A stretch of 64,000 nucleotides of DNA, from contig NC_091994.1 of NCBI RefSeq assembly GCF_044704955.1, positions 47,616,001-47,680,000 on the forward strand. The letters run 5' to 3'. A program made the translations under genes and the position numbers. Shown piece after piece: positions 114 to 44,159 of the stretch. Every line of letters starts with the position of its first letter. Positions within the stretch are counted from its first letter, which is position 1. This stretch comes from Pristiophorus japonicus. Its lineage: Eukaryota. The notes below the pieces were generated by a model, which worked only from the letters and a program-made list of their open reading frames with translations, was not told the origin of the DNA and made no database searches.

Positions 114-1413
114 TGTAGGGGAGGATGAAAACCGGTCATTTTACCAAGAAGGAAAAGGGTTGTGGGATCGGTCTGTGCTGTGAATTGAAACCAAGACGGT
201 TTGACCTTGGCAGAGCAGTGATTGGACAGGGAAGGACACCGGAGGGCCAATGGTGGGACAGAGTCAGCCCGAAGCATGCGGCTTTCAATCCAATGGGAGA
301 GCAGTTGCTTGAAAACTGTGGGACTCATAGCCATTATCGGGCTATTGTCTTCCCCATGTTTACATTATGGAAGTAAATTATGCAGTCCTTCAGAAAACTA
401 GGGAACCCAAAACAAACCAAAGGCCTACACAATGGCTACAGGAGGCCAACCCAATTAACACCTACTCAAACCTTGAGTAGGTTAGAAAAACTGAATTGGA
501 GGAAAATTATGCAGACCTTCAGAAACCAGGGAACCCAAAACAACCCAAGGGCCTACACAATGGCTACAGGAGGCCAGCACAATCAATACCCACTCAAACC
601 TTGAGTAGGTTAACATCAGTGGAAAAAACCCGCAATAATCTAAAAGGGCTGCTTTTTCAAAATCACAAAGCCCACCAATGGGAAGAATCGATTTCAGCAG
701 GAGAGGCGGACTGGATAATCTGGCTATAAAAAGTGGTTTCTGACGTATTGTGGGTAGTTCCCTGCTCTCATGATCCAACAACCAGCAAGCCTCTCGACAC
801 TCAAGGAAAACCAGTGTCCGAAGACACCGAAGATAGAAGAAACAAACCACCAGACTGCAGAAGGCACAGTAGTGAGTATAACCTCTGGTCCCCGGAACTC
901 CCAACTCAGTTAGGCCAGGAAAGGTGGGAGGTTGGGCATTGTACTGCTAAACTTGTGTAAAGATTTTTGTTGTGTCCGTTTAGTGGGATTTGGGGGATTG
1001 TTTTGTTGGTGTATTGCTGTTTGTTGAGATACACCTTGTCAAATAAATTGGAAGCCTAAGTTCCTCTTGGAATCACCTTGTCTCAGTTATATTGTATTAC
1101 ATCTCCTGATCGTGAGTCTTATGTCAGAACAGTGTAAGGGAAGCTAGGAGTGCCTCGAAAATGCTCAACTGTGTGTCACAGGCTCGGGAAGAAGGGGTTA
1201 GGAGTGTTTGACACTCACAGGTGCCTCACAGGCTAGGCATAAGCTGTGGGGATGCACGAGTCTCAAAACCCCCTTCATAAGCTGTGGACACAGTCTCTCC
1301 AGGGGTGCTCTTGCAGCACTCAGGGTCTCTCACAGGCCAGGCATAAGCTGTGAGGGCAGAAGCCCAGAGAGAGACACCCAAGGCACAACAACACTCGCTG
1401 AGAACCCCTTACA
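114..1413 (+). repeat. Provirus 5' LTR
   Basis: TGTAGGGG...CCCCTTACA inverted termini; TATAAAA at about 725; AATAAA at about 1042; internal ~128-bp tandem duplication (about 369-612); repeated at 9545 and 29673. Confidence 0.93.
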
Positions 1414-1418
1414 GAACA

Positions 1419-1436
1419 TGGTGAACGCCGCAGGAC
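1419..1436 (+). promoter_or_regulatory. Putative primer-binding site
   Basis: TGGTGAACGCCGCAGGAC lies 5 nt after the LTR end. The cognate tRNA was not identified. Confidence 0.5.
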
Positions 1437-1492
1437 ATAAGCAAACAGGAGATGTTAATATAACAGATGAGGTGATAAGAGAGGAAACTAAA

Positions 1493-3300
1493 ATGGAGGA
1501 GAGAATTTCCTCATACATTTTTGGCAAGGTGAACCTCACCAAACCTTGGGTGCAAGCCCTCACACGGGCAGAGCGCCCAGTGGATGCTTCTGCCCAGTGG
1601 ACAGCAGGGAAGGACCACAACTGCAGGGTGGAAAAGGCCATCTGGCTTATCTGCTTCACCCGCCAAGTCCGAAAGCTCGACCAGCGGGTGAAGGACTTGG
1701 AACAGAGTCTTCAGAAATCAGAGGAGCTCTCTGCTATCCGGGCTGCGGTTGGGGACAACCTGCTGGCCGAATTAGCTGTGGAGCAGCAAGGGAAGAGGCA
1801 GTTGGAGGAGACCTTCCGAAATAGCCGGGACTATCTTCAGTGTCAGGTCACTGAGGCCAAGGGTAGTGAGGGGTCCATCTGGGAACAGAACTCTCGGTAC
1901 ACCCAGAAAATTTGGGAACCAGAGAATAAATTAAAAGACGTACAGGCAGCCTATAAAGTGGCCAGTAGCAGTGAGTTTGCAGATGACGGTCCCTGCCAGG
2001 AGAGGATTAAAACTCTCACCCATGCTCTATCCCAGGCAAAGGGAATGGATGCCCTGATAGGACCTGGAGGGTCCACAGGGGACAAAGGAGAGTATTGGGG
2101 GGTAGAGGAGAATCCAAAGGCAAGAGACGCCTGACCACCTCCTGAGGCACCGGTGGTTTGTCCGGTGGGGTACCAGGAGGAGCGGGGCTCGCAGATAGTA
2201 GCATACCCAGGGCTGGGGGCAGGACCAATGTGTCCCGCTCGGCAGCAGGGATGTGAGGCTCCCGCCGAGGGTCAGTTAAGGGCTGGATCAGGCGACTAGG
2301 CACTGTCTGCTGCACCGGGTATGGTGGGACAGCCGGAGGTAGAGGGGCCAGCGCAGAAAGATCCTGAACCAGGGCGGATGTGCCCGGTCAGGCAGCGCAA
2401 GTACGGTCCTCCACAGGGAGGTGGTCAAGGTCAGGGAGCGCTGGAGAGCTACTTTATTATTTCCCATGGAGTTCAATCACTCAGGGCTATGGTGGCCCAT
2501 TTGGCCAAAGTCACTCGCAGCGGGGACCACTTCATGGAGGTGATGCAGGCAGGGGAAATTAATGGGTGCGACGAGGAAGAGACAGCCAAGCTGCTGCTCT
2601 TCTCTCTGGACAGCAAATTGTACCAGGCCCTGCCAGCAGAATGTCGGAGGGGGCAGCGCACATTTACTGAGGTCCAGAGGGCCGTCCTTGAGGCTATGGG
2701 CTTCGATGACGGCAGTCCTTTCGAACGGGTCGAAAGGACAAGGCAGCTCGCAGGGGAAACCCCGCAGGCGTTTGCGGACAGGCTGTGGGTGGTATACCAC
2801 GCAGCCTGTGGGGAGCTCCTCGACCGGGTGAATCTTTCCGTGGTACAGACTGGCCGCTGGCTGAGGATGCTCAAGGCCAGGGCAGAACTGTGGTTCGATT
2901 CCCAGGACCCCAACCTCACCGAGGAAGCACTGGTCAGGCAACTGGCACTGGCCCAACAGAATGGAGGAGGGGAGGAGGAGAAAACCTCCAAAGGTCGGGT
3001 AAATGAAGTAAAACCCAACTCGATTCCCAAAAGGGAATGGCACCAGGAGGGCGGCTGCTCGATTGATAAGGAGGGAGTGTGCTATGGGTGTGGGAAAGCT
3101 GGGCATTTTAAAAGGGATTGCAGGAGCCCAGTAAAGAGATATGGGGGGAGAAGTCCTTTAGGAGCCGCCCAGAGTGGGGGAAGTGGAGCGAGCTCCTCAC
3201 GATCCTTGACGAGATAGTAGCTGCAGTGAGGACAGCGCTGGAGGGGACTGGGAAGGTAGCCACGGCAACAGGCAGGGAAGCACCAGCAATCCTGCCGTGA
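1493..3300 (+). pseudogene. gag: gag: N-terminal coiled coil, capsid-like region, CCHC zinc knuckle
   Basis: ORFs 1208-2134 and 2321-3217 are in one frame, broken by stops at 2132 and about 2297. CYGCGKAGHFKRDC knuckle. A frameshift near 3195 leads to TGA at 3298-3300. Confidence 0.85.
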
Positions 3301-6300
3301 CTAGCCCAGACCCAGCCTGCATACCTGTGCCCACTAGAATACGACCCCTGGGGACGACCCTGGGTCAAGATGGAGGTTGAGGGTGTATTGGGTACTTACC
3401 TTTTGGACACTGGTGCTTCCAGCACGATAGTCCATTCGGAGGACCCCGCAACCTCACCTCTATCAAACGGGGTGCCGTATCAACTAGTTGGGTTGACAGG
3501 AAATAAGAAGGCTGGGTTTTTCTCAGTCCCGCTCGCAGTTCGTTTAGGAGCATTCCAAACACAATGGAAGTGCGTCCTGATGAACTGGGAGCAGGTGGGA
3601 AAAGGGATCTTGGGGGCTGATTTCATCATTGCTCGCCAGATCCTAGTAGACTTGAGGAATCACTGTCTATGGGGCACAGTGGGCACGGGAGCAGAGGGAG
3701 AAGTCATGGTTATTGATAAGAAACAGGGAAAAGGGACTCTGTGTACAATGAAGCCAAAAGTGGGTTACGACCTGGAGGTTCTGGTTGGTAACACGCCGGC
3801 CGAGTACCGGGCCTATGTGCAAGCAAATCTTGCAGCATTTGCCACCCATAAACACGATTGTGGGAGAGTCACAGGAGTGGAGGTTAGAATAGATGGGGAT
3901 CCCATGTCCCGCCCGCAAAAGCAGTATGGCTTTCCCCGAGAGGCAGAAGCAGACTTGGAGACAGCTTTAAGCTCACTTGTCGAGCAGGGTGTTTTGAGAC
4001 CCATAGCCACCCATGTCAACTCCCCGCTTTGGCCGGTTAGGAAACCGGACAATTCTTGGAGGGCTACGGTGGATTATAGGTTGCTCAATAAAAACATCCC
4101 AGCTTGTGCTCCCACAGTAGCGGCGGTTGCGGATCTGATAGGGGAAATCCCTGCATCCGCAACCACGTTCATAGTGTTGGACATATCCAACGGGTTCTGG
4201 TCTATCTCTGTATGGAGGGAAGACCAGTACAAGTTTGCCTTCACCTTCCGGGAACAGCAGTATACATGGAGCTGCCTCCCACAGGGCTTTCATAATAGTC
4301 CCAGCATCTTTCACCAATGCATGGCGAACTGCTTAAAAGGCTTCAGCCAACCACACCAGCTGATCCAGTATGTGGACGACCTGTTGTTGTTCACAGACAG
4401 CAGTGAGGAACACGGTCCACTGCTGGCCGAACTGCTGGTCTTACTGAAGGAAGGGGGTTTTAAAGTTAACCCCAAGAAAGCCCAGATAGGTCTAGGAGAG
4501 GTAAAATTACTGGGCCTGACGATAAGGGAAGGAGAAAGGGCCATTGATGAGGCTAGAAGAAAGGCAGTGCAGGAATTCCCTGTTCCAAGGGATGTGTTGG
4601 GAGTAAGGTCTTTCCTGGGAATCACTGGCTACTGTAGGGACTTCATCGAGGACTATGCAGCCACTGCCGCCCCTCTGCTCAGACTCCTACATAAGGAGGT
4701 CGAGTGGGAATGGGGCGAGGGCTGTGAGGCAGCATTTGTCCATCTTAAGAGAGACCTGCAGGTAGCACCAGCCCTACGGGCAATTGATGGGGGGGAGGAA
4801 TTCTTCCTGGAGGTGGCAGCCAGTGGCGACAGCTTAAGTGCAGTGTTGCTCCAGGAGCGAAACGGTCAGCTGAGACCAGTGGTGTACTCCTCCAGGGTCC
4901 TCACGGAGGTAGAAAAGGGATAGTCCAATTGTGAGAGGCACTTTCTTGCCACCCATTGGGCAGTAAAGAGAGCTCAGATCTTTACCGGAATATCCCCCAT
5001 TACACTCCTCACCCATCATACCCCGTCGCAGATGCTGTTGGACGGGAGGATTAAGGACGGGACAGTAAGCAGTGCTAGAATCACTCGCTGGACCCTCCTC
5101 CTCTCTCAAATGACTTTAAAGGTCAAGGGCCTCTGCGAGCCCAGGCTCGCAGCAAATTTAATCTATCCAGGGCAGCCGCATTGATGCTCTGTGGAGGGGG
5201 TATGGGACATCAACTTTAGATTTCGTGCAGGGATACACCCCACAGGCCGCGAGATCTACGTTGATGGCTCCAGTTCAGTGTCCGCGGGTACAAGACTCAT
5301 GGGCTGCGGAGTTTGGGATCCCAAGGCAGGGATTGCCTTGGCTCTTAAACTTCCATGCACCCTGAGCGCCCAGCAGGCGGAACTCTCGGCGGTGATGTAT
5401 GTGGTCACACACCCCGAGGAATTCCCTACTCCATACACGATTTGCTCGGACAGCATGTTCACTTGCAATTCGTGTACAGCATATCTGGCGATTTGGTCAC
5501 GCCGGGGGTACACCTCTGCGGATGGGAAGCCCCTTGTGACCAAACCCCTGCTAGAAAAGATTGTGGCTGCAGTGGGAGAAAGTGGGGATGTATATATCCA
5601 TAAGGTAAAGGCCCACTCCAAAACTGAGCCACGGGGGGAAGGTAACCAGCAGGCAGACCTGCTGGCAAGTGAAGGTGCTCGTTCAGGTCGCCCATGGGAC
5701 CCATACGAGGTAGGCAGGATAACAGCAGCAAGAAGCAAGCCAGGGATACAAGGGAGCGTAGGGGCGGCTGCGGCCTCGGATCTTAAAGTAGTCCAGATGC
5801 AGGATCCGGTCCTGAAGGCTGCCTTGGCTGCTATCAAAAAGGGGGAAAAGGCGGAGGGCCCATACAGTGCTGCAGATATTGCTGTGCGGGAAGGCATGCT
5901 GTTTAAAGGGAACAAATGGATAGTGCCATCACAACACCGGAGGGAATTCCTTCAGCTGGCCCATGAGGGTCCAAGTGCGGGAAACCTGGGCCGGAATCTA
6001 CCTGGCAACAGATAGAAAAGGCAGGTTGGTGGCCAGGCCTCCAGGAAGATGTCCGCAACTTCTGTGCGGGCTGTCTGGTTTGCGCTGCAAACAACCCAGA
6101 CCCTCAGAAAAGGAAGGTGTCTATGGGACACGTCAGGCGGGTGGAGGGACCGTGGCAGTCGATCCAGATCGACTACATCGGACCCCTATCGGCCGCCCAG
6201 GGAGGTTATAAATACTGCCTCGTCCTGGTGGGTTTTCCAAGTGGGTGGAAGCCTTCCCTTGCCGAACAGCTACCACGGTGGGGACTGCAAAAATCCTGGT

Positions 6301-7066
6301 GAGGGAGGTGTTCTCTTGGTGGGGTCTACCTCAAATCGTGGAGTCCGACCGGGGAAGCCACTTCACCGGCCAGGTGATGCAGGCCACCCTAAAGGTGCTG
6401 GAGATAGGAACCAAATGGCATGTTGCCTACAATCCTCAGTCCTCAGGCCCCGTAGAACGCCTGAACTGGACCCTAAAGGAAAGGCTGCGCAAGGAGACGG
6501 GAGACTCAACGAACAAGTGGGTGGAGGTCTTACTGTTGGTCCTCATGGGAATCCGGGCCAGTCAGTTAAAGAGCACAGGGTACTCACCCCATGAGCTGAT
6601 GATGGGCCGGATCATGAGAACCTCAGTGCATGTGTTGGCGCCGGTTCTCACCGAAGGGCAGCTTCGAGAGGTGAACCGGGACCACTTCGTCAGGAATCTG
6701 TTTGAACAGCTTCAACAGATTCACTGGCAGGCGGCCAACAACATGGGTAAACAGCACCGTGCCAATCGGCTGCTGCTGGAACCCTGCAGTCACCATGATT
6801 GGGAGGTGGGCGACCAGGTGATGGTGAGAAGCTTCGCCTGGGTCGGGGTATTTGAACCACTGTATATGGGACCATACAGCATAGTCGACAAGGCTAGCCC
6901 TATGGTCTATGCGGTTCAATTGCCTCGCCGGGTGAAGTGGTATCACATTCATCAGTGTAAATTGTTTGACCCCAAAAGAGATAAAAAACAGAGGGGACGA
7001 GCAAGGGAAGGGAATCAGGCACTGGGAGAAGAACAGGCCCCGGTGGATTTGGAGGCTCCGCAGTAG
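3301..7066 (+). pseudogene. pol: pro-pol: protease, RT, tether (degenerate RNase H), RNase H, integrase
   Basis: Motifs: LLDTGAS; LDISNGF, LPQGF, YVDD; FFLEVAAS..RPVVYSSR; IYVDGS, QAELSAV, SDS, HKVKAH, GNQQAD; CAGCLVC, QIDYIGP, SDRGSHF, VERLN, GPY. Stops at 4921 and 5183; frameshifts near 5985 and 6230. An RRSNRV-type tail may extend to about 7348 through another stop. Confidence 0.93.
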
Positions 7067-7754
7067 GCAGCGGGCCCCGAAGCTCTACAGCCGGGGCTGG
7101 TTCATTGCTCCAGTAAGGCTATCCCACCACTGGGTAGAGGTTCCCAGCCCACTAACAGAAGGAGGGAGAAAGGCTCTACCATTAGCAAGGTCCAAGGGGA
7201 AGCTGAACCTCCCATGGTGGATCAGCTGGGGCTAGCCCAAGAGGTGGAGGAGATAGCATTGCAGCCCATAACGTGGGACTCTGCACCGACAGTAAGGAGG
7301 AGTAACAGAGTGCCACAGCCAGGGCGCCATGGCACACTGTTTACTTAGCTCCCCGCCCCAGACCGAGAAGGCGAAAGACAACAGGGAGGGTGCTCTGTTG
7401 CGTTAGAAAGGATCTCCCACCGATTATCCGGGGCTCGGGAGGGCCTTGGAGGGCAGCACCAGATCTATTAAGGGGGACTATACGAGCCCCTCAGCGGAGG
7501 GCATCCTAGTCCCCAGGGTACGGTCAGCTGAGTGGTCGACGACGCCTGTACAGTGACAGGATGTAGCCTGGCCACCCGGGGACGGGTGGCGGTGTATTTA
7601 TTTTGCCTTCCTGTTTTGTTACTTTGTGTTGTGTGCAGATGTGTTTAGGTAAGGCAGTGACGGTTGGGTTCAGCATTTTATGTTCGGAACATGTTAAGTG
7701 GGCCGAGCCTGGAGAGGTCTCTCAAGGCAAGACCATGTTCTTCTTGCCTTTCAG

Positions 7755-9165
7755 ATGTCAACACCTCCCTACTGGACGTTAGTGATGCTGGTATCGCTAA
7801 GGATCTGCACCGGGCACCGAGGGGACACTGAGGACTCCCTGGTTTTCGGATGCTCTGGGGGCAGAGCGCCGACAGTGACCACAGGAGAAGGGACTCCGGC
7901 GGCGGATGGCCGGGTCACCTACTCCCACGAGGGGAGATGGCCTGGGTGGTTGAGATCGAACTCCACCAAGTACTCCAACCATAAGGACTTTACCTACGGA
8001 GAGGCCTCCATCCCCTGCCCGGAGATCACTGTAGCCATTTCCAGAGTGAGAGTGACAGAAGGCAGGAAGGTGTACCTAACTTGCCAAGGGGACATACCTC
8101 TGGGACGGTGGTGGTGGCTCAGAAAGCTCAAGAGGGACGTGGGAGACCGATACTCGGACTGGGAACGTCTGGATAATGATACCTACCGAACCATCATGGT
8201 GTCATCTGGCGGGGTCACAGTGTGCGTGGAGAAATGGTGGGCATACGACCAAGGAATTTATTTGTGTATGTGGGGATCCACTCGCGTGTGTTCAGAGGGG
8301 GTCTCCATTGCTTTCTATAGGTGGTGGTCAGGATATCTGTGATGGGGGCGTCCTCAAAACCTCTGTACCAAGTGGAGAATGTGGGAGTCATTCGTGGAGG
8401 GGTGCATGTTCGATTCCAAGAGGTCCCACCTTATGTCACAATGTGGGAGCACACTGTGACAAGTACAGACCTCTCGGGATGTCGGAGCAGGGGAACACAG
8501 GTAATCCTGTGCACCCAACACTTGAACGCTTTTGCAAGGTCACAATGCGGGTTCAGCACTGCCGGGGCAGAGCCTATCAATTGCACAATGGAGGTAATGG
8601 CCCCTAACAACATGCCTCCACAGGAGCATATGTAGGCGGTGGGACATATTGTGTCACCACAAGTGCCCAACGGTATGAACACGGACCGGGAAGGTGGTGT
8701 CCAATACCGTACAGCAGCTTTTGCTTTAAACCCAGGGCAGAGGTTCAGGTGGCACACACTAGAATCACACCCATCCCTGAACCTTCCACGATTCACCTCA
8801 CGGTACAAATCAACCTCAGCTACCTACAACAATATGTCGCCCATTTTGGCTATCCCATTGCCCCACAACCTGAGAAACTTACAGCCCTCCTCCAGGCAGT
8901 GGATTTGTCTCAAAAACATTTTTACACCATGAAGCAGAAAACTGAAATTCTAGCAGGGGAGATTGCCCAGATTAAACCCCCAGCATGGTGGGATTTGGGG
9001 ATACGGGCAGACATAGCTGCGTGGATCCGGGTGGGATCGCATGCTTTAGTAATCGGCCAACTCCTGATTGTAGCATATCTGCTAGTTACAAGCTGTAAGC
9101 TCAGGAGAAAAAGAAAAAGAAAGCAGTTCCTCAGGCTACTACACAGACAGGAGAGCCATTGCTAA
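7755..9165 (+). pseudogene. env-position type I membrane protein: signal peptide, Ig-superfamily domain, F-glycoprotein-like Cys-rich region, helical stalk, TM, basic tail (two frameshifts)
   Basis: TTCTTCTTGCCTTTCAG|ATG acceptor; leader MSTPPYWTLVMLVSLRICTG; VTEGRKVYLTC..W..DQGIYLC. Frames join near 8320 and 8622. TM ALVIGQLLIVAYLLVTSC is followed by KLRRKRKRK. Confidence 0.8.
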
Positions 9166-9544
9166 ACACTCAAGGCGTGTAAACAAAGCTTGACCGCGAC
9201 ACTTAGGCGGTTTTTGTTATTCCCAGGGATGACTGCGTTTTCATACATGGCCCCTGGGGAGTTTGCAGGGCAGGTTTCTTTGTTTTACGGTTAAGACTGA
9301 AATGAGACTCAATGTACAATTACTGCTGTAACCTTAAGTACATATATGTATATTGCTGTCGATAATTGTAACCTGTTGGAATCTGTGTTTTGTACCGCGT
9401 TAAAAGGAATTACGATATATATCGACGGGATCAGTTTAGAGTTAAACTGGGGAAAGTTAGGCAATTGGGGAGACCTAGGGTTTCCTCACCACCCTGAACT
9501 TTGACACACTTAAGTGGTGTCTGACTGTGTCAGATGGGGGATTA

Positions 9545-10803
9545 TTTCGGGGAGGAAGGAAAAGGGCTGTGGGATCGTTCTGTGCTGTGAATTGAAACCA
9601 AGACGGTTTGACCTTGGCAGAGCAGTGATTGGACGGGGGAGGACACCGGAGGGCCAATGGTGGGACAGAGTCAGCCCAAAGCACGGGGCTTTCAAGCCAA
9701 TGGGAGAGCACTTGCTCGAAAACTGTGGGACTTATAGCCATTATCGGGCTATTGTCTTCCCCATGTTTACACTATGGAAGGAAATTATGCAGACCTTCAG
9801 AAAACTAGGGAACCCAAAACAAACCAAGGGTCTACACAATGGCTACAGGAGGCCAACCCAATTAACACCTACTCAAACCTTGAGTAGGTTAGAAAAACTG
9901 AATTGGAGGAAAATTATGCAGACCTTCAGAAACCAGGGAACCCAAAACAACCCAAGGGCCTACACAATGGCTACAGGAGGCCAACGCAATCAATACCCAC
10001 TCAAACCTTGAGTAGGTTAACATCAGTGGAAAAAACCCGCAATAATCTAAAACGGCTGCATTTTTCAAAATCACGAAGCCCACCAATGGGAAGAATCGAT
10101 TTTAGCAGGAGAGGCGGACTAGATAATCTGGCTATAAAAAGGGGTTTCTGATGTAGTGTGGGTGGTTCCCTGCTCTTGTGATCCAACAACCAGCAAGCCT
10201 CTCGACACTGAAGGAAAACCAGTGTCCGAAGACACCGAAGATAGAAGAAACAAACCACCAGACTTGCAGAAGGCACAGTAGTGAGTATAACCTCTGGTCC
10301 CCGGAACTCCCAACTCAGTTAGGTCAGGAAAGGTGGGAGGTTGGGCATTGTACTGCTGAACTTGTGTAAAGATTTTCGTTGTGTCCGTTTAGTGGGATTT
10401 AGGGGCATTGTTTTGTTGGTGTATTGCTGTTTGTTGAGATACACCTTGTCAAATAAATTGGAAGCCTAAGTTCCTCTTGGAATCACCTTGTCTCAGTTCT
10501 ATTGTATTACATCTCCTGATCGTGAGTCTTATGTCAGAACAGTGTAAGGGAAGCTAGGAGTGCCTCGCAAATGCTCAACTGTGTGTCACAGGTTAGGGAA
10601 GAAGGGGTTAGGAGTGTTTGACACTCATAGGTGCCTCACAGGCTAGGCATAAGCTGTGGGGACGCACGAGTCTCAAAACCCCCTTCATAAGCTGTGGACA
10701 GAGTCTCTCCAGGGGTGCTCTTGCAGCACTCAGGGTCTCTCACAGGCCAGGCATAAGCTGTGAGGGCAAAAGCCCAGAGAGAGACACCCAAGGCACAACA
10801 ACA
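9545..10803 (+). repeat. Provirus 3' LTR (both ends damaged), preceded by a short purine tract AGATGGGGGA
   Basis: Direct repeat of 114-1393, with about 14 mismatches in the first ~245 aligned nt by hand count. About 25 bp are deleted near the start and the last ~20 bp are missing. Confidence 0.92.
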
Positions 10804-13693
10804 GATGATGTCAACGCCCATCTCTGGATACGGGATGATGCATTGGTATTAATATCTTTGTTTTCCGAAAACAATGAAATGAGTGGCTTGTGATCCGTTT
10901 CGATCTCAAAATGAAGACCAAACAGGTACTGATGCATCTTTTTGACCCCATAACAACAGGCCAAAGCTTCTTTTTCTATCATGCTGTAAGCTCTTTCCGC
11001 CTTTGACAAACTTCTCGAAGCATACGCAACAGGTTGTAGCTTACCCGACTCATTTGCTTGTTGGAGTACACATCCAACCCCATATGATGAAGCAGCACAG
11101 GCCAATACAGATGCTTACACGGATCATAATGAACAAGCAACTTGTTTGAACAGAGCAGATTCTTAGCTTTCTCAAAGACTCTATCTTGAGACACACCCCA
11201 GACCCAGATGTTGCCTTTTCTGAGTAGCATATGTAGTGGCTCTAATAAAGTGCTCAATTTGGTTAAGAAATCACCGAAGTAGTTGAGTAGCCCAAGGAAT
11301 GAACGCAGCTCTGTCACATTCTGAGGCCTGGATGCATTTTTGATGGCCTTAGTTTTCAAATCAGCAGGCCTGATGCCATCAGCAGCAATCTTCCTCCCCA
11401 GGAATTCAACTTCAGATACCATGAAGACACACTTCGAACATTTCAGCCTGAGTCCCACTTTGTCCAGACAATGTAGGACTTCTTCAAGATTGTTCAGATG
11501 TTCAGCAATGTCACGACCTGTGACCAGAATGTCATTTTGAAACACGACAGTTCTAGGAACAGACTTCAGTAGACTCTGCATATTCCTCTGAAATATGGCT
11601 GCAGCTGAACGAATTCCAAAAGAACACCTGTTGTAGACAAACAGTCCTTTATGGGTGTTGATGCAGGTGAGTTTCTTCGAAGTGCCGACAAGCTCCTGTG
11701 TCATATAGGCCGATGTCAGATCTAGTTTAGTGAATGACCTGCCACCAGCTAGCATGGCGAACAGGTCATCAGCTTTCAGTAACGGATACTGATCCTGTTT
11801 CGAAAATCAGTTAATCGTAACCTTGTAGTCACCACAAATCCTGACAGTGACATCAATCTTCAACACAGTAACAATGGGGCTGGCCCACTCGTTAAACTCG
11901 ACCGGTGATATGATCCCTTCTCGTTGGAGTCTGTCAAGCTCAATTTTAACCTTCTCCCTCATCATGGAAGGAACAGACCGAGCTTTATGATAGACAGGCT
12001 TTGCATCAGAATCTAGGTGAACCTGCACCTTGGCGCCAGGAAAATTACCAATGCCCGGTTCAAACAAAGAAGGAAACTTCTTCAACACTTGAGCACATGA
12101 AGTGTCATTCATCGAGGACAATGCTTTGACATCATTCCAGTTCCACTTGATTTTCTCAAGCCAATTCCTACCGAACAGCGTTCGGATAAACACCTGGGAT
12201 GATCCATAATGGTAGATCATGAACCACGCCATCATATGACACCTTGACTACTATACTGCCAATCACCGGTATGAGTTCCTTAGTCTAAGTACGCAACTTG
12301 GCATTGACTGGACTCAGCTTAGGCTTCACAGCCTCAGTGTCCCACAGCTTGTTGAATGCCCTTTGGCTCATTATCGACTGACTCACACCTGTCAGCGTCA
12401 CATTAACGATTATTGGCTGGCTCTTTCCCAAGAACGAATACAGACCATACACTTCCTCACCGGCTTGTGTATCCGGGCCAGCACTGGACTGATCATCATC
12501 AAAAATGTGATGAGTGGCAGCACGGTTGTTCAGTTGTGGGCACATTCTCTGAAGATGCCCCACTTTCGAACAGCCATTACAGGCGGTATTGTTTAAACCA
12601 ACACTGATGAGGCCGATGATTGCCCCCACAATGCCAACAGGGTGAAATCAGATTCGTACCAGTTGGTGGACTCTGAGCAGCTATAGGTTTCACATAAGCA
12701 ATCGAGTAGGCCTTTCCATGAGCAGGTCTGCCAGAAGACGACACAATCTTGTTTACAGTAGCTGTCGTGGAGCTCCGATTCTTCGTTGATATCTGCCTCA
12801 AGCTATCATCAGATATCATGCATGCCTGGGCAGTCGCGATGGCCTTTCTCAAATCCAGCTTCTCTTTGGCCAAAAACTTCCGAAGAATCACATTATGGTT
12901 GATGCCTATCACGAAGAAATCTCGCAACATGTCTTCCAACACGTTCCCGAACTTACGCGGCTCAGCAAGACGTCATAGGTCGGCGATGAATCCCGACACA
13001 GCCTGATCCTCAGCACAAACATGTGTATAGAAGCAATAGTGTGAGATGATGATCCCCTCTTTTGGCTTACAAAATCCTCGAAGCATACGCAACAGGTTGT
13101 TGCTTACCCGACTCATTTCCTTGTTGGAGTACACATCCAACCCCATATGATGAAGCAGCACAGGCCAATACAAGATGCTTCCACGGATCATAATGAACAA
13201 GCAACTTGTTTGAACAGAGCAGATTCTTAGCTTTCTCAAAGACTCATACTCTTTGTCCATTGGACGTAAAGGCGAGAGAAGATTCTTCATAAGGCTGTAA
13301 ATTTTCGGATGACAAATGGTGAGGAAAACCGCCATGCGCCTAATTGCATCAGCCTCTCCCTCCATTTTGTTGGCCACAAAACACTGATCCAGGCGGTCGA
13401 TAAAATCCGCTCAATCCTCGCTCTCCGCAAATCTCTCCAGAATTCCAGTAGTGCCCATTGTACATGCGAAGGTTCTTAAGTTACCTCGCCGCCAAATGTA
13501 ATGTCTCAAGAGCCTTGTTACTGTAATCGGCCTCAGGCGTATTCCTGATCCAACTTTATTTGCGCTCAAAGTACCTGCGTGACATAGTACCCGCTCTTAT
13601 ATATCAGTGACCGCACACACGCGCGTACAGCCCGATGACCTCCGACACTGGCGCCCCCTGGTGTCTGGTGACCCCAAGCATCAATACATAACA
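10804..13693 (-). mobile_element. Gypsy element A copy 1 (Mag-like): 5' LTR 13497-13693, gag, protease, RT, RNase H; decayed
   Basis: FTKLDLTSAY, ELRSFLGLLNY, QPVAYASRSL, EKEALA, TDHKPL. PBS TGGCGGCGAGG (tRNA-Ser-like). LTR has TG..CA ends. Confidence 0.92.
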
Positions 13694-15245: not shown

Positions 15246-18200
15246 TGTTACACTCATAATAAATGGTCAGACTGAGTACTGTGTATAATGAGCAAGTGTG
15301 ACCTTAGCTCCTTTATTAAGATTCCAGAGTGCAGGTACCTCGTGGGTGGCCTGCTTATATACTTGGCTCCCAAGGGATGCTGGGATTCCTTGGGACTCCA
15401 ACAGGTAGGCCCTCTGGTGGTCAGGTGTGATGCAAGTTGCAAGGGGTTAAATACATAATATCACTCCCCCGTGAAGTCAACAGTACACTTATTTACAAGG
15501 TGAGACGATCTGGGGCTTTGCGGTCCCTTGTCGATCGTCTCGGTACAAATGCTGGTGTGGGTGGGTTGGTCAGTTCTTCACTGGGCTGTTGAGTTGCCAG
15601 CCTTGCCGGGCTGCTGGGGATGGTGAGTTCGATTTCGTGGTCAACTATGATGTCAGTTGCCACTTGTGTGTATGTGTGTGTGTGTTGGAGTGTAAAGTTG
15701 GTGGTATCTTCTTCAGGTTGTTCGTAGCTGTTGGTGAACCTCAATTTGATTTGGTCCAATTGTTTTCTGTGCGTTTGTCCATTGGTCAGTTTGACCTGAA
15801 ACACCACTCTTTGGCTGTGACCGTGCCAGCGAGTCATTTGGGACCATGTCCATTATTGAACACAAACACAGGATCATTGATCTCAATATCGCGTGACATT
15901 TTTGCGCAGTCATGGTACACACTTTGTTGATGCCGCTTGATCATGGAGATCAGGGTGGATATGACAGAGCCTTGTTTTAAGCGCTCTTTTCATGAGCAGC
16001 TCAGCTGGGGGAATGATGGTGAGTGAGTCGGGTCTGGTGCAATAGCTGAGCAGTACTCGGGACAACCGGGTCTGCAGGGAGTCTTCCGACACGCGTTTCA
16101 AGCTCTGCTTGATGGTCTCAACTACCCGTTCTGCATGGCCATTTGGTGCGGGCTTGAACGGGGCAGGTGTGAAATGTTTGATCCGGTTGCGTGTCATGAA
16201 TTCCTTGAATTCAACACTGGTGAAGCACGGCCCATTGTCGCTGACACGGACATCAGGCAAGCCGTGCTTGGCAAACATGGCTCGTAGGCTTTCAATGGTG
16301 GCTTTGGAAGTGCTTACAGACATTATTGCACATTCAATCCATTTTGAATAAGCGTCCACGACAACCAAAAACATTTTGCCTAGGAATGGGCCCGCATAGT
16401 CGACATGCATCCTCGACCACGGTTTGGATGGCCATGACCACAAACTTAGCAGTGCCTCTCTGGGTGCATTGCTCAACTGAGAGCAAGTGTTGCAGTGGCG
16501 CATGCATGACTCTAAATCTGAGTCGATGCAAGGCCACCACACGTGGGGTCTGGCTATGGCTTTCATCATTATGATGCCTGGGTGGGTGTTGTGCAGTTCG
16601 CAAATAAATGTCTCTCTGCCTTTCTTGGGCAAGACTACGCGATTGCCCCACAAAAGACAATCCACCTGCAGGAACAACTCGTCTTTGCATCTGTAGAATG
16701 GCTTAATCACTTCCTGCATCTCCACTGGGACACTGGACCAGCTCCCATGGAGGACACAGATTTGTACAAAAGACAGTAAAGGATCCTGGCTGGTCCAGGT
16801 CCTGATCTAGTGGGCCATAATGACGGACTTCTCGTTCTCAAATGCCTCCATGACCATGAGCAAGTCTGCTGGCTGTGAATTTTCCACCCCGGTGGTGGGC
16901 AATGGTAGCCGACTGAGAGCTTCTGCGCAGTTCTCTGTGCCCGGTCTGCGGCGGATTACATAGTTGTATGCCGACAGCATGAGTGCCCATCTTTGGATGC
17001 GAGCAGGGACATTGGTATTAATCCCTTTGCTCTCCGAGAATAGCGATATGAGCGGCTTGTGGTCAGTTTCGAGCTCAAATTTGCAGCCAAATAAGTACTG
17101 GTGCATTTTTTTTACCCCGTAAGCACACGCCACAGCCTCTTTTTCAACCCTTTTGGTCTTGGACAAACTCCTGGATGCAGACACAACCGTTTGCAAAATT
17201 CCCGATTCATTAGTCTGTTGTAACACACACCCGACCCCATATGACGACGCATCGCAAGCTAACACTAATCGTTTACATGGGTTATACAGGACAAGCAGTT
17301 TATTAGAACATAATATGTTTCTGGCTTTCTTAAAGGCAGCCTCTTGTGAATTCCCCCATACCCAGTCGTCTCCCTTGCGCAGTAGCGCATGTAGGGGTTC
17401 TAGCAGGGTGCTTAACCCAGGTAGGTAATTACTGAAATAGTTAAGGAGCCCCAGGAACGACCGCAGCTCCATCACATTCTGTGGTCGCGGTGCGTTTTTG
17501 ATGGCCTCCATCTTGGCGTTGGTGGGTCCGATGCTGTCTGCTGCGATTCTCCTTCCTAAGAATTCGACGCCCTGTGCCAGGAAAACACACTTCGAGCGTT
17601 TCAACCTGAGCCCCATGCGATCCAACCGACTAAGAACCTCCTCCAGATTCTTCAAGTGCTCCATGGCGTCCCGACCTGTAACCAATATTTCGTCCTGGAA
17701 GACCACTGTGCAAGAAACCGACTGTAGCAGGCTTTCCATGTTCCGCTGGAAGATCGCTGCGGCCGACCGAATCCCGAACGGGCACCGGTTGTAGATAAAC
17801 AGACCTTTGTGTGTGTTGATGTAGGTGATGCTTTCAAAGACTCCTCCAGCTCCTGCGTCATGAAGGCCGAGGTCTGGTCCAGCTTGGTGAATGTCTTCCC
17901 TCCAACCAGGGTCGCAAATAGGTCATCTGCCTTGGGTAGTGGGTACTGGTCCTGCAGCGAAAAATGGTTAATCGTTACTTTGTAGTCCATGCAAATTTTA
18001 ACCGTACTGTCCTCCTTGAGTACCGGAACAATCGGACTGGCCCAGTCATTGAATTCCACTGGCGCGATGATGCCTTCACGTTGCAGCCTGTCCAGCACGA
18101 TTTCCACTTTTTCACGCATCATGTACGGTACCGCACGAGCCTTGTGGTGATTGGGTCGCGTACCGGGAACCAAATGGATGTGCACTTTCGCTCTCGAAAA

Positions 18201-19764
18201 GCTTCCAATGCCTGGCTCAAACAATGAAGGGAACTTGCTTCGAACCTGGGTACATGCGGTGTCGTTGACGGATGAAAGCGCTCAGATTTTGTCCCAGTTG
18301 CAACGGATTTTCCCCAGCCAGCTTCAACCAAACAAAGTGGGGCTATCCCCTGGCGCAATCCACAGTGGGAGTTCGTGTACTGCTACATCATAGGAGACTT
18401 TGACTGCCAATTACAGGGATTAGTTAGTTCCTTGGTACATGTCCTTAGTTTGGTGTGAATGGGGCTGAGCTTGGACCTGTGTGTCTTCTTTCCCCACGAC
18501 CTGTCGAAGGCCGCTTTACTCATTATGGACTGACTTGCCCCTGTGTCCAACTCCATAGACACTGGAATGCCATTCAGTTCAACTTTCAACATTATTGGTG
18601 GGCATTTAATCGTGAACGTATGTACCCCGTACACTTCTGCCTCCTCAATACGAGTTTCCAATTCCATCTGATCCACTGTGGATCGATCTTCCTCTGCAAC
18701 GTGGTGGTTTGCAGGATTTGCAGCTCGCCTCCACATTCGCTGGAGGTGTCCCATTGTTCTGCAGCCATTACACGAATAGTGCTTAAAGCGGCATTGATGG
18801 GGCCGATGATCACGTCCGCAGCACCAACATGGTGTTAACTGCCTCGCATTAACAGATGATGGCTGACTCTGGGTCAATTGAGGTTGAACCACAGCAGCCG
18901 GCGTGTACTTTCTGCCACGTACATTTCTGCTCAAAATCGATGTTACTTTATGCACTGTACTGGCTGAAACTTCTTTGTTCTGCGAAATCTGCTTGGTGTT
19001 GTCATTGGTGGACATAAATGCCTGGGCTATCGTTATGGCTTTACTCAGACTCGGAGTTTCTACAGTCAACAGTTTGTGAAGGATTGTCTCATGTCCAAAG
19101 CCCAGTAGAAAAAAGTCTCTGAGCATTTGTTCTAGGAATCCCTCAAACTCACAATGTCCTGCAAGGCACCTTAGTTCAGCGACATAGCTCGCCACTTCCT
19201 GGCCCTCCGATCGTTGACACGTGTAGAACCGATATCTCGCCATCAAAACACTTTCCTTTAGGGTTTAGTTGCTCCCGGACCAGCATACACAATTCTTCGA
19301 GGGATTTCGCTGTTGGTTTTGCTGGGGCCAGGGGATTCTTCATGAGGTCATAGGTTATTGCCCCACAGACAGTTAGGAGGATCGCCCTTCGTTTGGTAGC
19401 GTTCTCGTCCCCTTCCAGCTCATTGGCCATGAAGTGTTGGTCGAGTCTCTCCACGAAGGCCTCCCAATCGTCCCCTTCTGAGAACTTCACCAGGATGCCG
19501 ACTGTTCTTTGCATTTTCGCGTGGTTGTTTGTTACCTCGTCGCCAATTGTTGCACTCATAATAAATGGTCAGATTGAGTACTATGTGTAATGAGCAAGTG
19601 TGATCTTAGCTCCTTTATTAAGATTCCAGAGTGCAGGTACCTCGTGGGTGGCCAAGGGTTCCCTACTGTGCTCCCAAGGGTTGCTGGGATCCCTTGGAAC
19701 TCCAACAGGTGTGCCCTCTAGTGGTCAGGTGTGATGCAGGTTACAAGGGGTTAAATACATAATA
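15246..19764 (-). mobile_element. Gypsy element B copy 1 (Mag-like), full length, decayed
   Basis: LTRs 15246-15460 and 19548-19764; ATTAG 5-bp TSD on both sides; PBS TGGCGACGAGG; PPT GGGGGAGTGA; ELDTGAS, RT, RNase H, HVDYAGP and SDNGP integrase motifs. Confidence 0.95.
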
Positions 19765-23145: not shown

Positions 23146-23557
23146 GACACTAGTCACTGCTCATCCTTCATTGCCTCACGTCTCCCTATCTCTGTAACCT
23201 CCTCCAGTCCTACAACCCTCCCCCCCCTCTCTGAATTCACTGTTCCTGTGACTCGGGCATTTTTTGCATTCTGCCCTTCCTTTGTCTCACCATTGGTGGC
23301 CGTGCCTTCAGTCGTCTAGGCCTCATGCTCTGGAATTCCCTCCCGAAACCCTTCTTTCCCTCCACCTCCTTCACTGACTTGAAGACCTTCCTTAAAAACC
23401 CCCTCTTTGACCAAGCTTTCAGTCACCCCTCCGAATATCGTCTTTGTCTTGGTGTTCTTGTTGTCTGATTACACCTGACTTTGCAAATTGTAACTCGATC
23501 CACTTTGAATTCTTGAAGCGACAGAGGACAGAGCTCCCCAGCAGACAGCAAGGACCA

Positions 23558-26400
23558 CCCAAAGTGCCTTACCCCAGTCCAAGTGCATGCCTCCCCCAGC
23601 CGAAGTTCCTTACCGCAGTCCAAGTACATGCCTCCCCCAGCCAAAGTGCCTTACCCCACCCAGTCCAAGTGCATGCCTCCCCCAGCTGAAGTGCCTTACC
23701 CCACCCAATCTGTGCATGCCTCCCCCAGCCAATATGCCTTACCCCAGTCCAAGTGTATGCCTCCCCCAGCCAAAGTGCCTGCCTCCCCCAGCCAAAGTGC
23801 CTTACCCCAGTCCAAGTACTTCACTCCCCCAGCCGAAGTGCCTTACCCCAGTCCAAGTGCATGCCTCCCCAGCAAAAATGCCTTACCTCAGTCCAACTAT
23901 ATCCCTCCTCCAGCCAAAGTGCCTTACCCCAGCAGAAGTGAATGCCTGCCCCAGCCAAATTGCCTTACCTCAGTTCAAGTTTATGCTTCCCGCAGCCGAA
24001 GTGCCTTACCCCAGTCGAAGTGCATGCCAAACCGCAGCCGAAGTGCTGTACCCCAGCACAATGCATGCCTGCCCCTACCAATGTGCGTTACTCCAATCCA
24101 AGTACGTTATAATGTACATTAACGAATTAGATAAAGGAATAGAGTGTAATATCTCCAAGTTTGCGGATGACACTAAACTGGGTGGCGGTGTGAGCTGTGA
24201 GGAGGACGCTAAGAGGCTGCAGGGTGACTTGGACAGGTTTGGTGAGTGGGCAAATACATGGCAGATGCAGTATAATGTGGATAAATGTGAGGTTATCCAT
24301 TTTGGGGGCAAAAACACGAAGGCAGAATATTATCTGACTGGCGGCAGACTAGGAAAAGGGGAGGTGCAACGAGACCTGGGTGTCATGGTTCATCAGTCAC
24401 TGAAAGTGGGCATGCAGGTACAGCAGGCGGTAAAGAAGGCAAATGGTATGTTGGCCTTCATAGCTAGGGGATTTGAGTATAGAAGCAGGGAGGTCTTAAT
24501 GCAGTTGTACAGGGTCTTCGTGAGGCCTCGCCTGAAATATTGTGTTCAGTTTTGGTCTCCTAGTTTGAGGAAAGACGTTCTTGCTATTGAGTGCAGCGAA
24601 GGTTCACCAGACTGATTCCAGGGATGGCTGGGCTGTCATATGAGGAGAGACTGGATCAACTGGGCCTTTATTCACTGGAGTTTAGAAGGATGAGAGGGGA
24701 TCTCATAGAAACGTATAAGATTCTGACGGGACTGGACATGATAGATGCGGGAAGAATGTTCCCGATGTTGGGGAAGTCCAGAACCAGGGGACAGTCATAG
24801 GATAAGGGGTAGGCCATTTAGGACTGAGATGAGGAGAAACTTCTTCACTCAGAGATTTGTTAACCTGTGGGATTCCCTGCCGCAGAGAGTTGTTGATGCC
24901 AGTTCACTGGATATCTTCAAGAAGGAGTTAGATATGGCCCTTACGGTTAAGGGGATCAAGGGGTATGGAGAGAAAGCAGGAAAGGGATACTGAAGGAATG
25001 ATCAGCCATGATCTTATTGAATGGCGGTGCAGGCTCGAAGGGCCGAATGACCTACTCCTGCACCTATTTTCTATGTTGTTATGTTTCCTCCCCCAGCCAA
25101 TGTACCTTACCCCAGTACGTGTATGCCTTCCCCAGCCAAGGTCCCGTCCCTCAGTGCAACTGTATGCCTCCCCTAGCCGAAATGCCTTATCCCAGTTCAA
25201 GTGCATGACTCCCCCAGCCAATGGGCCTTACCGAAGTCCAAATGCATGCCTCCCCCAGCTGAAGTGCCTTACCCCAGTCCAAGTACTTCCTTTCCCCAGC
25301 CGAATTGCCTTACCCCAGTCCAATTGCATGCCGCCCCCAGCCAAAGTGCCTTACCCAGCGCAAAGGCATGCCTGCCCCAGCCAAAGTGCCTTACCCCAGT
25401 TCAACTGTATGCCTCTCCGTGCCAAATTGCTGTGACTCAGCGCAAGTGCAAGCCTGTCCCAGCCAAAGTGCCTTGCCCCAGCCAAAGTGCATGCCTCTCC
25501 CTGCCAAATTTCCTTACCCCAGTCCAATTGCAAGCCAGTCCCCAGCCAAAGTGCTTTACCCCTGTCCAATTGCAAGCCTCCCCCAGCCGAAGTGCCTTAC
25601 CCCAGTCCAAGTGCATGCCGCCCCCAGCGAAATTGCCTTACCCCAGTCCAACTAATTACGTCCCCCTGCCAAAGTGCCTTACCCTAGTCCAATTGCATGC
25701 CTCCCCCAGCCAAAGTGCCCAACCCCAATCCAAGTGTATGTCTCCCCCAGCCAAAGTCCCATATCCCAGTGCAAGTTCATGCCTCCAGCAGCTAAAGTGC
25801 CTTACCCCAGTTCAAGTGTATACCGCCCCCAGCCGAAGTGCCTTACCCCAGTCCAAGTACTTCCCTCCACCAGCCGAAGTGCCTTACCCCAATCCAATAG
25901 CATGCCTCCCCCAGCCAAAGTGCCTTATCCCAGTCCGTGTATGCCTCCCCCAGCCGAAGTGTCTTACCCCAGTCCAAGTACTTCCCTCCACCAGCCGAAG
26001 TGCCTTACCCCAATCCAATAGCATGCCTCCCCTAGCCAAACTCCCGTACCCCAGTGCAAGTGCATGCCTGCCCCTGCCTAAGTGCCTTACCCCAGTCCAA
26101 TTGCATGTCTCCCCTAGCCGAAGTGCCTTACCCTAGGACAAGTGCATACCTCCACCAGCCTAAGTGCTGTACCCCAGTCCAAACGTATGCCTCCCCCAGC
26201 AAAACTGCTTTATCCGATTCCAGCTAGTTCCCTCCCCCAGCCAAAGTGCCTTACAACGGCCCCAGTCCAAGTGTATGCCTCCACCAGCCAAAGTGCCTTT
26301 CCTCAGTCCAACAAATTCCCTCCCCCAGCCAAATAGCCTTACCCCAGTCCAACTACTTCCCTCCCCCAGCCGAAGTGCCTTACCCAAACACATGCATCCT
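23558..26400. repeat. 41-bp minisatellite array (consensus CAGCCRAAGTGCCTTACCCCAGTCCAAGTGCATGCCTCCCC), split by a LINE
   Basis: Period of 41 (e.g. units at 25215 and 25256); two blocks at about 23558-24108 and 25085-26400. Confidence 0.92.
24110..25083 (+). mobile_element. 5'-truncated CR1-clade LINE inside the minisatellite
   Basis: ISKFADDTKLGG, WQMQYNVDKC, RRMRGDLIETYKI; TTTCTATG tail. Confidence 0.92.
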
Positions 26401-28230: not shown

Positions 28231-29520
28231 CTTGGTGGTGGACTCCTCCATGTTCCTTGACATTGCCAATAGGCTCCCTGGCAGGCTAGCCATTGCACCT
28301 AGCACTTCGGTCTGCATGCCAATCACCTTTCTGCTGAAGACCGACCCATCAAGGTCCTTAACTGAGTCTTGTGCAGCAGAAACCATGTGCGAACTCGCTC
28401 TCCGGGAAGCTGACCCGAGTTCCCTTTCACCCCTGGCCTTGCTGCAGCCCACTTGTGCCCGGTGCCTCACTCTGTGCAGATCCCGTTTCTATGCTAGCCT
28501 CTAAAATATGTGCAGTGCCAGTTTCTGAGCTACTTTCTGTGAGTGACAGATGCAGCAGCATCTTCTTCTTCTCTCCCCTCACTCTCGTGCATTGCCTCAG
28601 GGACAGGCTTCTCAGGTGCTTGTTGCTGATTATCTGCAAGCAGAAATGCAGAAGAATCGGGGTATGGTGAGGGGAGGGGGGGCATGAAGCAGGATACGCA
28701 TGCATACAGCATCAGCAGCTTGAACAGGAGAAGAGATTGTGGGATGAGGGGGAAGTGGGATGTGAGGAGAATTAGGAATGAGCATACCGTTGTTGTCCCC
28801 AAGGGATTCAACCTCGCTGGTTATCACGGCCGCTATGACCTGCCCCCCAATGATGTCCAGCACTCTCTCTTCCAGCAGGCTGAGGTCATAGTTGTCAGCC
28901 TACCCCCCACCTGTCTGCCGCTGCTCCCTCCGATGATGCGCGACCTTTGCCTGCAAGAGAAAGAGAAGTGCGTGAGTGAGTGTGGCGCAATGTGTTTGGG
29001 TGATGTGCCTGCCATAGTTGAATAGCTGTCAGTGTGCGCAAGGTGAGAGATGTGGGTGTGATGTTGCAGCAGTGGTAAGGTTGTGAGGGTGAAGTGAAGC
29101 TCTGATTGTAAGGTGTGAGTAGTGATGGGTAGAGATTTTTGGTAGGTGTGTGCTGGGGGTGTGGTACATGGAGCAGTGTGTGAGGCTTGTGGTGCAGATG
29201 GTGGGATATGGCATTTGCTGTCCTTGACCACCCGTGTGAGGTCATTAAACTTCAGCTGACACTGGATGGCTGACCTTGGGACCGCAGTGTTGGCCATGAC
29301 GTGGGCGTCTCTGTCCTGCCAGAGATTTCGCGAGGAGTGTGACGAGAGCTTCCTGCCAGTGTGGGGGAAGTGGACAGCCCGCCTCCTCTCCACGGCCATG
29401 ACCAGTGGCTCAAGAACCACTTCCAAGAATCTGCGGGCTCTCCCTGTGCTGATACTCCGCCATGGGTTTGCACTAACGTCTTCTTCCAGTTGCAGTTGTG
29501 AGGGGCTTGACAATGAGGTG
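28230..29520 (-). pseudogene. Myb/SANT-like DNA-binding gene remnant typical of PIF/Harbinger transposons
   Basis: RARRF..LEPLV.AVERRR..FP..GRK....LW.......PRSAIQCQLKFNDLTRVVK, followed by probable intron-separated exons. No transposase is seen. Confidence 0.65.
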
Positions 29521-29672
29521 CTGCAGCATTAGTGCATCTCCCCTTTAAGTACTGAATAAAGCCTGTAGCAAACATGACTGGGAATTAGACTGGACCCAAT
29601 ATTGGCCCATCTTGAGCGTTAAGTCAATGAGCAGCAGTTTTAGCGTGAAATCAAGACTATGATCATGATAAT

Positions 29673-31075
29673 TGTAGGGGAGGATGAAAACCCCCTCATT
29701 TTACCCAGAAGGAAAAGGGCTGTGGGATCTGTCTGTGCTACAATGTGAAATTGAAACCGAGACGGTTTGACCTTGGCAGAGCATTGATTGGACGGGGGAG
29801 GACACCGGAGGGCCAATGGTGGGACAGAATCAGCCCGAAGCATAGGGCTTTCAAGCCAATGGGAGAGCACTTGCTCGGAAACTGTGGGACTGACTCATCG
29901 CTATTATCGGGCTATTGTCTTCCCCATGTTTACACTATGGAAGGAAATTATGCAGACGTTCAGAAAACTAGGGATCCCAAAACAAACCAAGGGCCTACAC
30001 AATGGCTACAGGAGGCCAACCCAATCAAGCCCTACTCAAACCTTGAGTAGGTTAGAGAAAACTGAATTGGAGGGAAATTATGCAGACCTTCAGAAAACTA
30101 GGGAACCCAAAACAACCCAAGGGCCTACACAATGGCTACAGGAGGCCAACGCAATCAACACCCACTCAAACCTTGAGTAGGTTAACATCAGTGGAAAAAA
30201 CCCGCAATAATCTAAAACTGCTGCATTTTTCAAAATCACAAAGCCCACCAATGGGAAGGATCGATTTCAGCAGGAGAGGCGGACTGGATAATTTGGCTAT
30301 AAAAAGGGGTTTCTAATGCATTGTGTGTGGTTCCCTGCTCTTGTGATCCAACAACCTTCCTGACACCGAAGATAGAAGAAACAAACCACCAGACTGCAGA
30401 AGGAACAGTAGTGATATAACCTCCGGTTCCCAGAACTCCCAACTCAGTTAGGCCAGGAAAGGTGGGAGGTTGGGCATTGTACTGCTAAACTTGTGTAAAG
30501 ATTTTCGTTGTGTTCATTTAGTGGGATTTAGGGGGATTGTTTTGTTGGTGTATTGCTGTTTGTTGAGATATACCTTGTCAAATAAATTGGAAGCTGAAGT
30601 TCCTCTTGGAATCACCTTGTCTCAGTTCTATTGTAAGACTCCTGATCGTGAGTCGTATGTCAGAACAGTGTAAGGGAAGCTAGGAGCACCTCGAAAATGC
30701 TCAACTGTGTGTCACAGGCTAGGGAAGAAGGGGTTAGGAGTGTTTGACACTCACAAGTGCCTCACAGGCTAGGCATAAGCTGTGGGGGTGCACAAGTCTC
30801 AAAAACCCCCTTCATAAGCTGTGGACACAGTCTTTCCAGGGGTGCTCTTGCAGCACTCAGGGTACCTCACAGGCCAGGCATAAGCTGTAAGGGCAGAAGC
30901 CCAGAGAGATCGAAAACGCTCAACTGTGTGTCACAGGCTAGGGAAGAAGGGGTTAAGAGTGTTTAACACTCACAGTTGCCTCACAGGCTAGGCATAAGCT
31001 GTGAGGGCAGAAGCCCAGAGATAGACACCCAAGGCACAACAACACTCCCTGAGTTGGGAGTGAGAACCCCTTACA
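29673..31075 (+). mobile_element. Solo LTR of the same provirus family
   Basis: TGTAGGGG...CCCCTTACA; 4-bp TSD TAAT at 29669-29672 and 31076-31079; extra tandem copy of the U5 repeats. Confidence 0.95.
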
Positions 31076-43812: not shown

Positions 43813-44159
43813 ATATGGAGTTTCAAAAAGGGGTTTGATAACCTGCAACATTAGAGGTTTGTTGATAAAACTAGGGGGAATTGTTGGACGGAGATAGAAG
43901 ATATATCTGGGATGAGAGGCTTTAGATATGAGGAGGGTTGAGAGTAATTGAGGACTTTTGCAGATCAAGGAAGGTTAAGAAAAGATCTAATACAGTTGCT
44001 CAGAACTTTTGGTAAGGTAAATCGGGTAAATCTATTTCCAGTGGTTGGTGAATTAGTAACTAGAGGGAATAAATATGAGATCATCACCGAACGAATGAAA
44101 GGAAAGGGCTGGTGAATGTTTATGTTGTGGAGGGGAGTTAGGACTGGGTGGATGAAGGG

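Follow-up and report, generated by a model that had tools for sequence, protein, structure and literature searches.

The 64,000-nucleotide stretch of the Pristiophorus japonicus genome analysed here (the window) contains a defective LTR-gag-pol-env-LTR provirus at positions 114-10803. It is probably a canonical retrovirus of a deep-branching clade shared with frog and coelacanth ERVs, with a likely F-type envelope and a probable immunoglobulin-like (Ig) domain at the N-terminus of the envelope protein. The coordinates of its parts are collected in Table 1.

Table 1 Parts of the provirus and a solo LTR of the same family (positions in the window)
Feature	Position	Strand	Remarks
5' LTR	114..1413	+	TGTAGGGG...CCCCTTACA
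Putative primer-binding site	1419..1436	+	begins TGG, 5 bases past the LTR end
gag	1418..3300	+	stops and a frameshift; translation would begin at 1418 or 1493 (uncertain)
gag stop TGA in frame with pol, then CTAG	3298..3304	+	predicted readthrough junction
Aspartic protease, LLDTGAS at 3400	3352..3627	+	Pfam RVP and gag-asp_proteas, E 1e-4 to 4e-4
Reverse transcriptase (RT), YVDD at 4369	3922..4713	+	RVT_1 E 8e-32
Tether (Gypsy-type RNase H without catalytic carboxylates)	4714..5170	+	RT_RNaseH_2 E 5e-13; PF17919/PF17917
Second RNase HI, D-E-D-H-D residues	5251..5680	+	RNase_H PF00075 E 4e-21
Integrase: H2C2, DDE core, GPY, SH3-like end	5920..7066	+	three frames
env, N-terminal part	7755..8339	+	splice-acceptor-like site before ATG, hydrophobic leader, Ig-like domain ~8019-8267
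env, C-terminal half	8321..9165	+	Cys-rich beta region, second heptad region, TM ~9031-9087
3' LTR	9540..10803	+	start altered, end truncated
Solo LTR, same family	29673..31075	+	4-bp TSD TAAT/TAAT; K2P 0.054-0.059 to the proviral LTRs

The two proviral LTRs can be aligned over positions 9555-10803 of the 3' copy, with 1205 of 1246 aligned bases identical (K2P 0.034). This divergence would translate into an age of about 8 million years at the mammalian rate and of about 77 million years at the assumed shark rate, both as used in PMC4422223. The 5' LTR contains a 128-bp internal repeat and a sole AATAAA at 1042, about 370 bases from the LTR end. The in-frame ATG at 1418 overlaps the putative primer-binding site, and tRNA and Rfam searches of the 64-kb window returned zero matches.

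The provirus is inserted within a minus-strand Gypsy copy (1-113 and 10804-13400). Compared with the Gypsy copy at 40917-41221, the junction lacks about 50 bp of target together with the end of the 3' LTR, and the target site duplication (TSD) of the provirus is therefore unreadable. The 4-bp TSD described in an earlier note on this DNA is real, but it flanks the solo LTR and not the provirus. This solo LTR has an extra internal repeat close to its 3' end. The ancestral element would have integrated with a 4-bp target duplication. The present copy has since collected stops, frameshifts and an env deletion and can no longer make a working Pol or Env itself. The provirus stretch is contained in eight of ten listed sequencing runs (two organisms). 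Four runs were compared, and all 30 bins were covered, with many contigs at 90-99% identity; the family is thus multi-copy. Searches of viral contigs (2 of 35 loci) and metagenome contigs (2 of 165) gave weak, unrelated matches and no flanking env of relatives.

Elsewhere in the window, arrays of a 41-bp tandem repeat lie at 23500-26400 and are broken up by LINE sequence. Several decayed copies, presumably of Gypsy elements (15900-19300, 39600-47700, 57000-59200), and fragments which we take to be CR1-type LINEs (49600-54100, 61850-63430) are also present. An open stretch of 231 codons on the minus strand (28833-29528) presumably resembles the Myb/SANT-like protein of Harbinger transposons.

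The gag gene encodes a single CCHC zinc knuckle (Pfam zf-CCHC, E 8e-5) with nucleocapsid matches in the PDB, and its middle part is presumably capsid-like. The N-terminal stretch is heptad-rich by a simple heptad count, and to the extent of this count the coiled-coil gag of the earlier note holds. Some lokiretroviruses have an smc-like coiled-coil gene; no match to the SMC family was returned in the Pfam search here. In the ancestral virus, Gag-Pol would have been made by readthrough of the in-frame UGA. PMC13517186 reports such readthrough in gamma and epsilon viruses and in the snakehead retrovirus (SnRV).

In pol, every motif from which a dual RNase H polyprotein with a GPY integrase had been proposed was found at 3301-7066. 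The tether carries FFLEVAAS (4801-4824), CERHFLA (4930-4950) and THHTP (5011-5025). Aligned against two Gypsy RNase H domains, it lacks the first catalytic Asp, as had been claimed, but the other two carboxylates are lost as well (D to A, E to H and D to H). The 14 proteins from retroviruses or Loki that the same RNase H alignment contains likewise lack the Gypsy carboxylate set. The second RNase HI shows all five residues of an intact D-E-D-H-D set, in IYVDGS (5254), QQAELSA (5371), ICSDS (5440), KVKAH (5602) and NQQAD (5644). The dead Gypsy-type domain would serve as connection domain, leaving RNA removal to the second RNase HI. The integrase is recognised by Pfam through Integrase_H2C2 (E 1e-10), rve (E 9e-8) and an SH3-like end, and contains QIDYIG (6165), VESDRG (6338), GPVERL (6446) and GPY (~6869). 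The frame of pol is interrupted by in-frame stops at 4921, within the tether, and at 5182, and by frame changes near 5980-6010 and 6230-6250. The gap of about 690 bases between pol and env (7067-7750) holds a 93-codon open stretch with no Pfam match.

The combination of a tether and a new RNase H had been read as a pointer to the lokiretroviruses (Loki). It is common to all retroviruses and therefore cannot indicate Loki; the dual RNase H alone is an ordinary retroviral trait. The placement of the element relies on phylogeny instead. Three protein searches (120 of 261, 80, and the best 150 representatives, respectively) yielded 344 proteins, and the RT domain was recovered from 304 of them. 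Reference labels were assigned by matching proteins by eye to rows of the RT alignment of Wang and Han. The protein P0017 matches the SnRV row, and the Loki group comprises seven proteins, six recognised by their signature and one (P0277) by the tree. P0211, from Labeo rohita, is consistent with the Loki-Lro row and bears the sole host-based Loki label. The RT and RT+tether trees and the tests on them included four to seven Loki rows. Foamy, Odin, class II and CmiERV sequences are absent from every tree, and CGIN1 genes from the integrase tree. The RT was analysed with FastTree (212 rows after dropping sequences more than 80% alike), with IQ-TREE (85 hand-picked rows) and under a mixture model (40 rows). 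In the RT+tether tree (35 rows), the element is represented by a proxy, P0001, whose RT is 81% identical to that of the element and which is recovered as its sister with 100% support in each of the three trees from RT, RNase H and integrase.

In both the 212-row FastTree tree and the 85-row IQ-TREE tree, the RT of this element falls among the canonical retroviruses (56 rows, UFBoot 100), to which Loki is the sister group (100). The mixture-model tree places it inside the canonical retroviruses with 100/96 support and outside Gypsy with 100/99, which confirms the earlier view of a retrovirus-grade element rather than an ordinary Gypsy. Ordinary Ty3/Gypsy, in which the native RNase H is active, was rejected on this support and on the catalytically dead tether. 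With the tether added, P0001 is one of six rows in a clade (99/97) that also holds frog and coelacanth elements and unnamed ones, and this clade lies within the canonical retroviruses (100/99). The RT of the element is 48-52% identical to those of four clade members that were checked; the value is 43% for the SnRV-matching P0017 and 35-38% for Loki. The best PDB matches of the RT score 179-182 bits, and we take them to be MLV-type RTs; the next are foamy-type (151-166 bits), and Ty3 reaches 115-119 bits.

The relation to SnRV shifts with the tree: the two share one clade in FastTree (0.97), are unresolved in the 40-row RT tree and stand apart in the 35-row RT+tether tree. Because of this variation, "SnRV-like" can only be a loose label.

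The earlier note went further and saw a lokiretrovirus-like lineage. That the element is a lokiretrovirus, or belongs to a sister lineage of them, and is the first in cartilaginous fish, is highly improbable. Its F-like env would fit such an origin, as would top relatives that are named NYNRIN-like, like Loki proteins. The tether is also nearer to Loki (31-33% identity) than to SnRV (21%), with a common stretch R-[IL]-[KR]-[DE]-G-x-V-S; this closeness is taken as slow decay of an ancestral state. Such a finding would be new, since in the published account, as far as available, none of six chondrichthyan genomes contained Loki (PMC7947760). Nevertheless, the approximately unbiased (AU) tests reject this placement, both with the element and P0001 forced together with Loki (RT, p 0.027) and with P0001 forced there (RT+tether, p 0.0008), and none of the trees from RT, RNase H and integrase puts the element within Loki. 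For the second RNase H, which in Loki belongs to a group with foamy viruses, an 88/99 branch separates the element from Loki (37 rows, weak backbone). The integrase is outside the Loki clade, whose integrases are CGIN1-related, with 99 support (48 rows, quick tree, weak backbone). The element also lacks PFGY-x-NSP-x-[ED]-[FW]-N and SRWP, which are present in most of the Loki/Odin rows shown, and an in-frame stop splits its gag and pol, while Loki-Xtr is printed as a single Gag-Pol protein. Membership in Odin was rejected, since env is present here and the Loki-Odin RT signature is absent by eye.

Checked by RT and integrase phylogeny, as the earlier note had proposed, the element lies outside Loki by both and outside Gypsy by RT. 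That note had named a grouping with ordinary orthoretroviruses as a refutation, and this applies only in part: the element is canonical, yet deep-branching and equipped with an unusual env. The suggestion of a new clade or host record was not borne out. The element falls outside Loki by RT and is therefore not a Loki host record, and class III-type ERVs have already been described in cartilaginous fish (PMC4422223, PMC11089739).

Foamy viruses are generally described as having a Gag without a Cys-His box and a pol expressed separately from gag. A position of the element with the spumaviruses, as a foamy-like ERV for which an Env with an F core would be expected, is most improbable. The foamy Env is structurally F-like (PMC11468914), foamy-type RTs are among the PDB matches at 151-166 bits, and foamy viruses, none of which came up in the protein and contig searches, are absent from the trees. 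However, the RT motifs are unlike those in the foamy and fish FLERV rows compared, the gag gene encodes a CCHC knuckle and is separated from pol by an in-frame stop, and the closest relatives of the element are the frog/coelacanth clade. A canonical retrovirus of this clade is still the preferred reading.

The envelope is the most unusual part of the element. A search of 854 candidates with env retrieved two proteins, both from Pristiophorus japonicus. The env pieces are 84% (residues 196-298) and 91% (residues 300-418) identical to one of them, P0345, which bears out the cartilaginous-fish host that had been presumed and makes an elasmobranch likely. In the second protein, P0346, a C-terminal env piece of this family heads a gene model named as a cadherin-related family member 5-like protein; this is either a gene-model artefact or an exonised ERV. 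Three further features are present in P0345: a site of furin type, a stretch resembling a fusion peptide, and a long helical region. Its cleavage site and fusion peptide, like its first heptad repeat, are missing from the env copy in the window. Two contigs from one sequencing run carry about 190 and about 630 additional letters at 8321-8327, from which an internal env deletion near 8321-8340 in this copy follows.

From the ESM Atlas and the motif comparison, the env very probably encodes an F-type (paramyxovirus/Loki-like) class I fusogen. The first ESM Atlas match of P0345 is the Fusion_gly PF00523 cluster (score 0.92, 201 shared features), and the F-like env of the earlier note agrees with this match. 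All ten best family matches belong to one family or clan, and 13 of 30 feature matches lie in the PF00523 set; as background, shuffled proteins reach a score of 0.9 in 4-10 of 100 cases, and one third of them obtain 10/10. By eye, the motifs of P0345 occur in the same order as in the published Loki-Xtr Env. The tail of the env in the window, when searched alone, scores best against a cluster of rhabdovirus glycoproteins, and recognition is low.

An env without homology to F, encoding a divergent class I fusogen whose likeness to F comes only from its coiled coils and cysteines, on a correctly placed pol, is improbable but has its own arguments. P0345 has neither a Pfam match to PF00523 at E<=1 nor a PDB sequence match at E<=10. 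Its two AlphaFold models (pLDDT 34.6 and 34.2) are unusable, and a BFVD fold search with the first one, which gave 0 matches at E<=0.001, is uninformative. The ESM Atlas structure rows favour a Baculo_F type (TM 0.58) and an unnamed chordate protein (0.55) over Fusion_gly (0.46), all of them below the naming bar. Against these stand the ordered motifs shared by eye with Loki-Xtr Env, the feature matches in the PF00523 set and the lack of gamma-type hallmarks: CX6CC, CXXC and the immunosuppressive domain (ISD) were absent from the three env pieces, part of env being deleted here, and from P0345 in a motif scan. We therefore continue with the F-type reading.

The Ig-like domain at the front of env matches Pfam Ig_3 with an E-value of 5e-4, under the curated cutoff, and gives weak PDB Ig matches (E 0.25-0.98). 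It had no match under E 2 among 346 collected proteins, the frog protein P0003 included. P0003 (Pyxicephalus adspersus), itself a member of this RT clade, shows a hydrophobic leader together with its own weak Ig match (E 0.012) at residues 1214-1291, directly after the integrase, which hints at a wider occurrence of Ig-fronted env within the clade. The Ig and F parts, which are never in one open frame here, presumably formed a single protein. This Env would be translated from a spliced RNA and cleaved at the furin-type site. It would then fuse membranes through refolding of its heptad repeats, and the Ig domain may have served for attachment.

In the mainly open-access literature covered, an F-type env was not described for any canonical retrovirus other than foamy viruses. 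A 2026 paper describes canonical retroviruses as generally having a retroviral class I Env, with F-like Env marking Loki-type lineages (PMC13524379). A likely F-type Env on a canonical pol, beside the gamma-type Env of CmiERV lineage I (CmiERV-I), would mean that the Env type does not define Loki. Wang and Han outlined four scenarios for the origin of the retroviral and lokiretroviral env, none of which could be excluded (PMC7947760). With the present element, the question of ancestral versus captured env becomes testable through Env and RT trees. It is possible, though rather unlikely, that this deep lineage of shark, frog and coelacanth keeps the ancestral F-type retroviral Env. If true, F-type Env would be found in Loki, foamy viruses and this third lineage, and the entry fusogen of their common ancestor would have been F-type. 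Gamma-type Env would then have replaced it repeatedly, even inside this clade (CmiERV-I), and the fusogen described here would also bear its own Ig attachment head. Capture of env from a Loki-like virus accounts for the same data.

Several known systems share parts of this organization. Lokiretroviruses are defined by RT monophyly as a sister group to the canonical retroviruses and have, as here, a well-preserved tether and an RNase HI (PMC7947760). The Loki Env is described as similar to the F protein of Mononegavirales (PF00523), with a cleavage site, fusion peptide, coiled coil and TM, and the env of this family is likely similar. In contrast, Loki-Xtr Env as printed has no Ig domain, while this element has a probable one at the Env front, and the RT signature, RNase H and integrase clade of Loki are not those of this element. 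Odin also has a dual RNase H, but it is described without env and with the Loki RT signature that is absent here (PMC9040795). Foamy viruses are canonical and have an Env with an F core, as is likely here (PMC11468914). They differ in their RT motifs; the Gag knuckle and the in-frame gag-pol are features of this element.

SnRV and the class III ERVs of clade Huo share with this element the canonical RT and the gag-pol readthrough arrangement, predicted here; nonetheless, SnRV is not its sister in the mixture-model trees, and the tether here is far less degenerate. A parallel in a similar host is CmiERV-I of the elephant shark, which was grouped with SnRV by Han 2015 (PMC4422223). In the supplementary DNA of that study, CmiERV-I resembles this clade by eye in the start of the RT, motifs A and B and a degenerate tether, and its RT motif B is identical to the one in P0130, the partner of P0008 in the 85-row tree. 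It further has a TGA between gag and pol, a provirus of about 9.5-10.7 kb and a cartilaginous-fish host, as here. Its env differs, with a gamma-type immunosuppressive domain and CX6CC, neither of which is seen in this element. CmiERV-I appears by eye to belong to the same deep clade, and on that account a shark host is not new. Clade Huo is found in all vertebrate groups (PMC6001957), and the RTs of cartilaginous-fish ERVs are mostly of clade III (PMC11089739). The pol lineage and the host described here are not new in kind.
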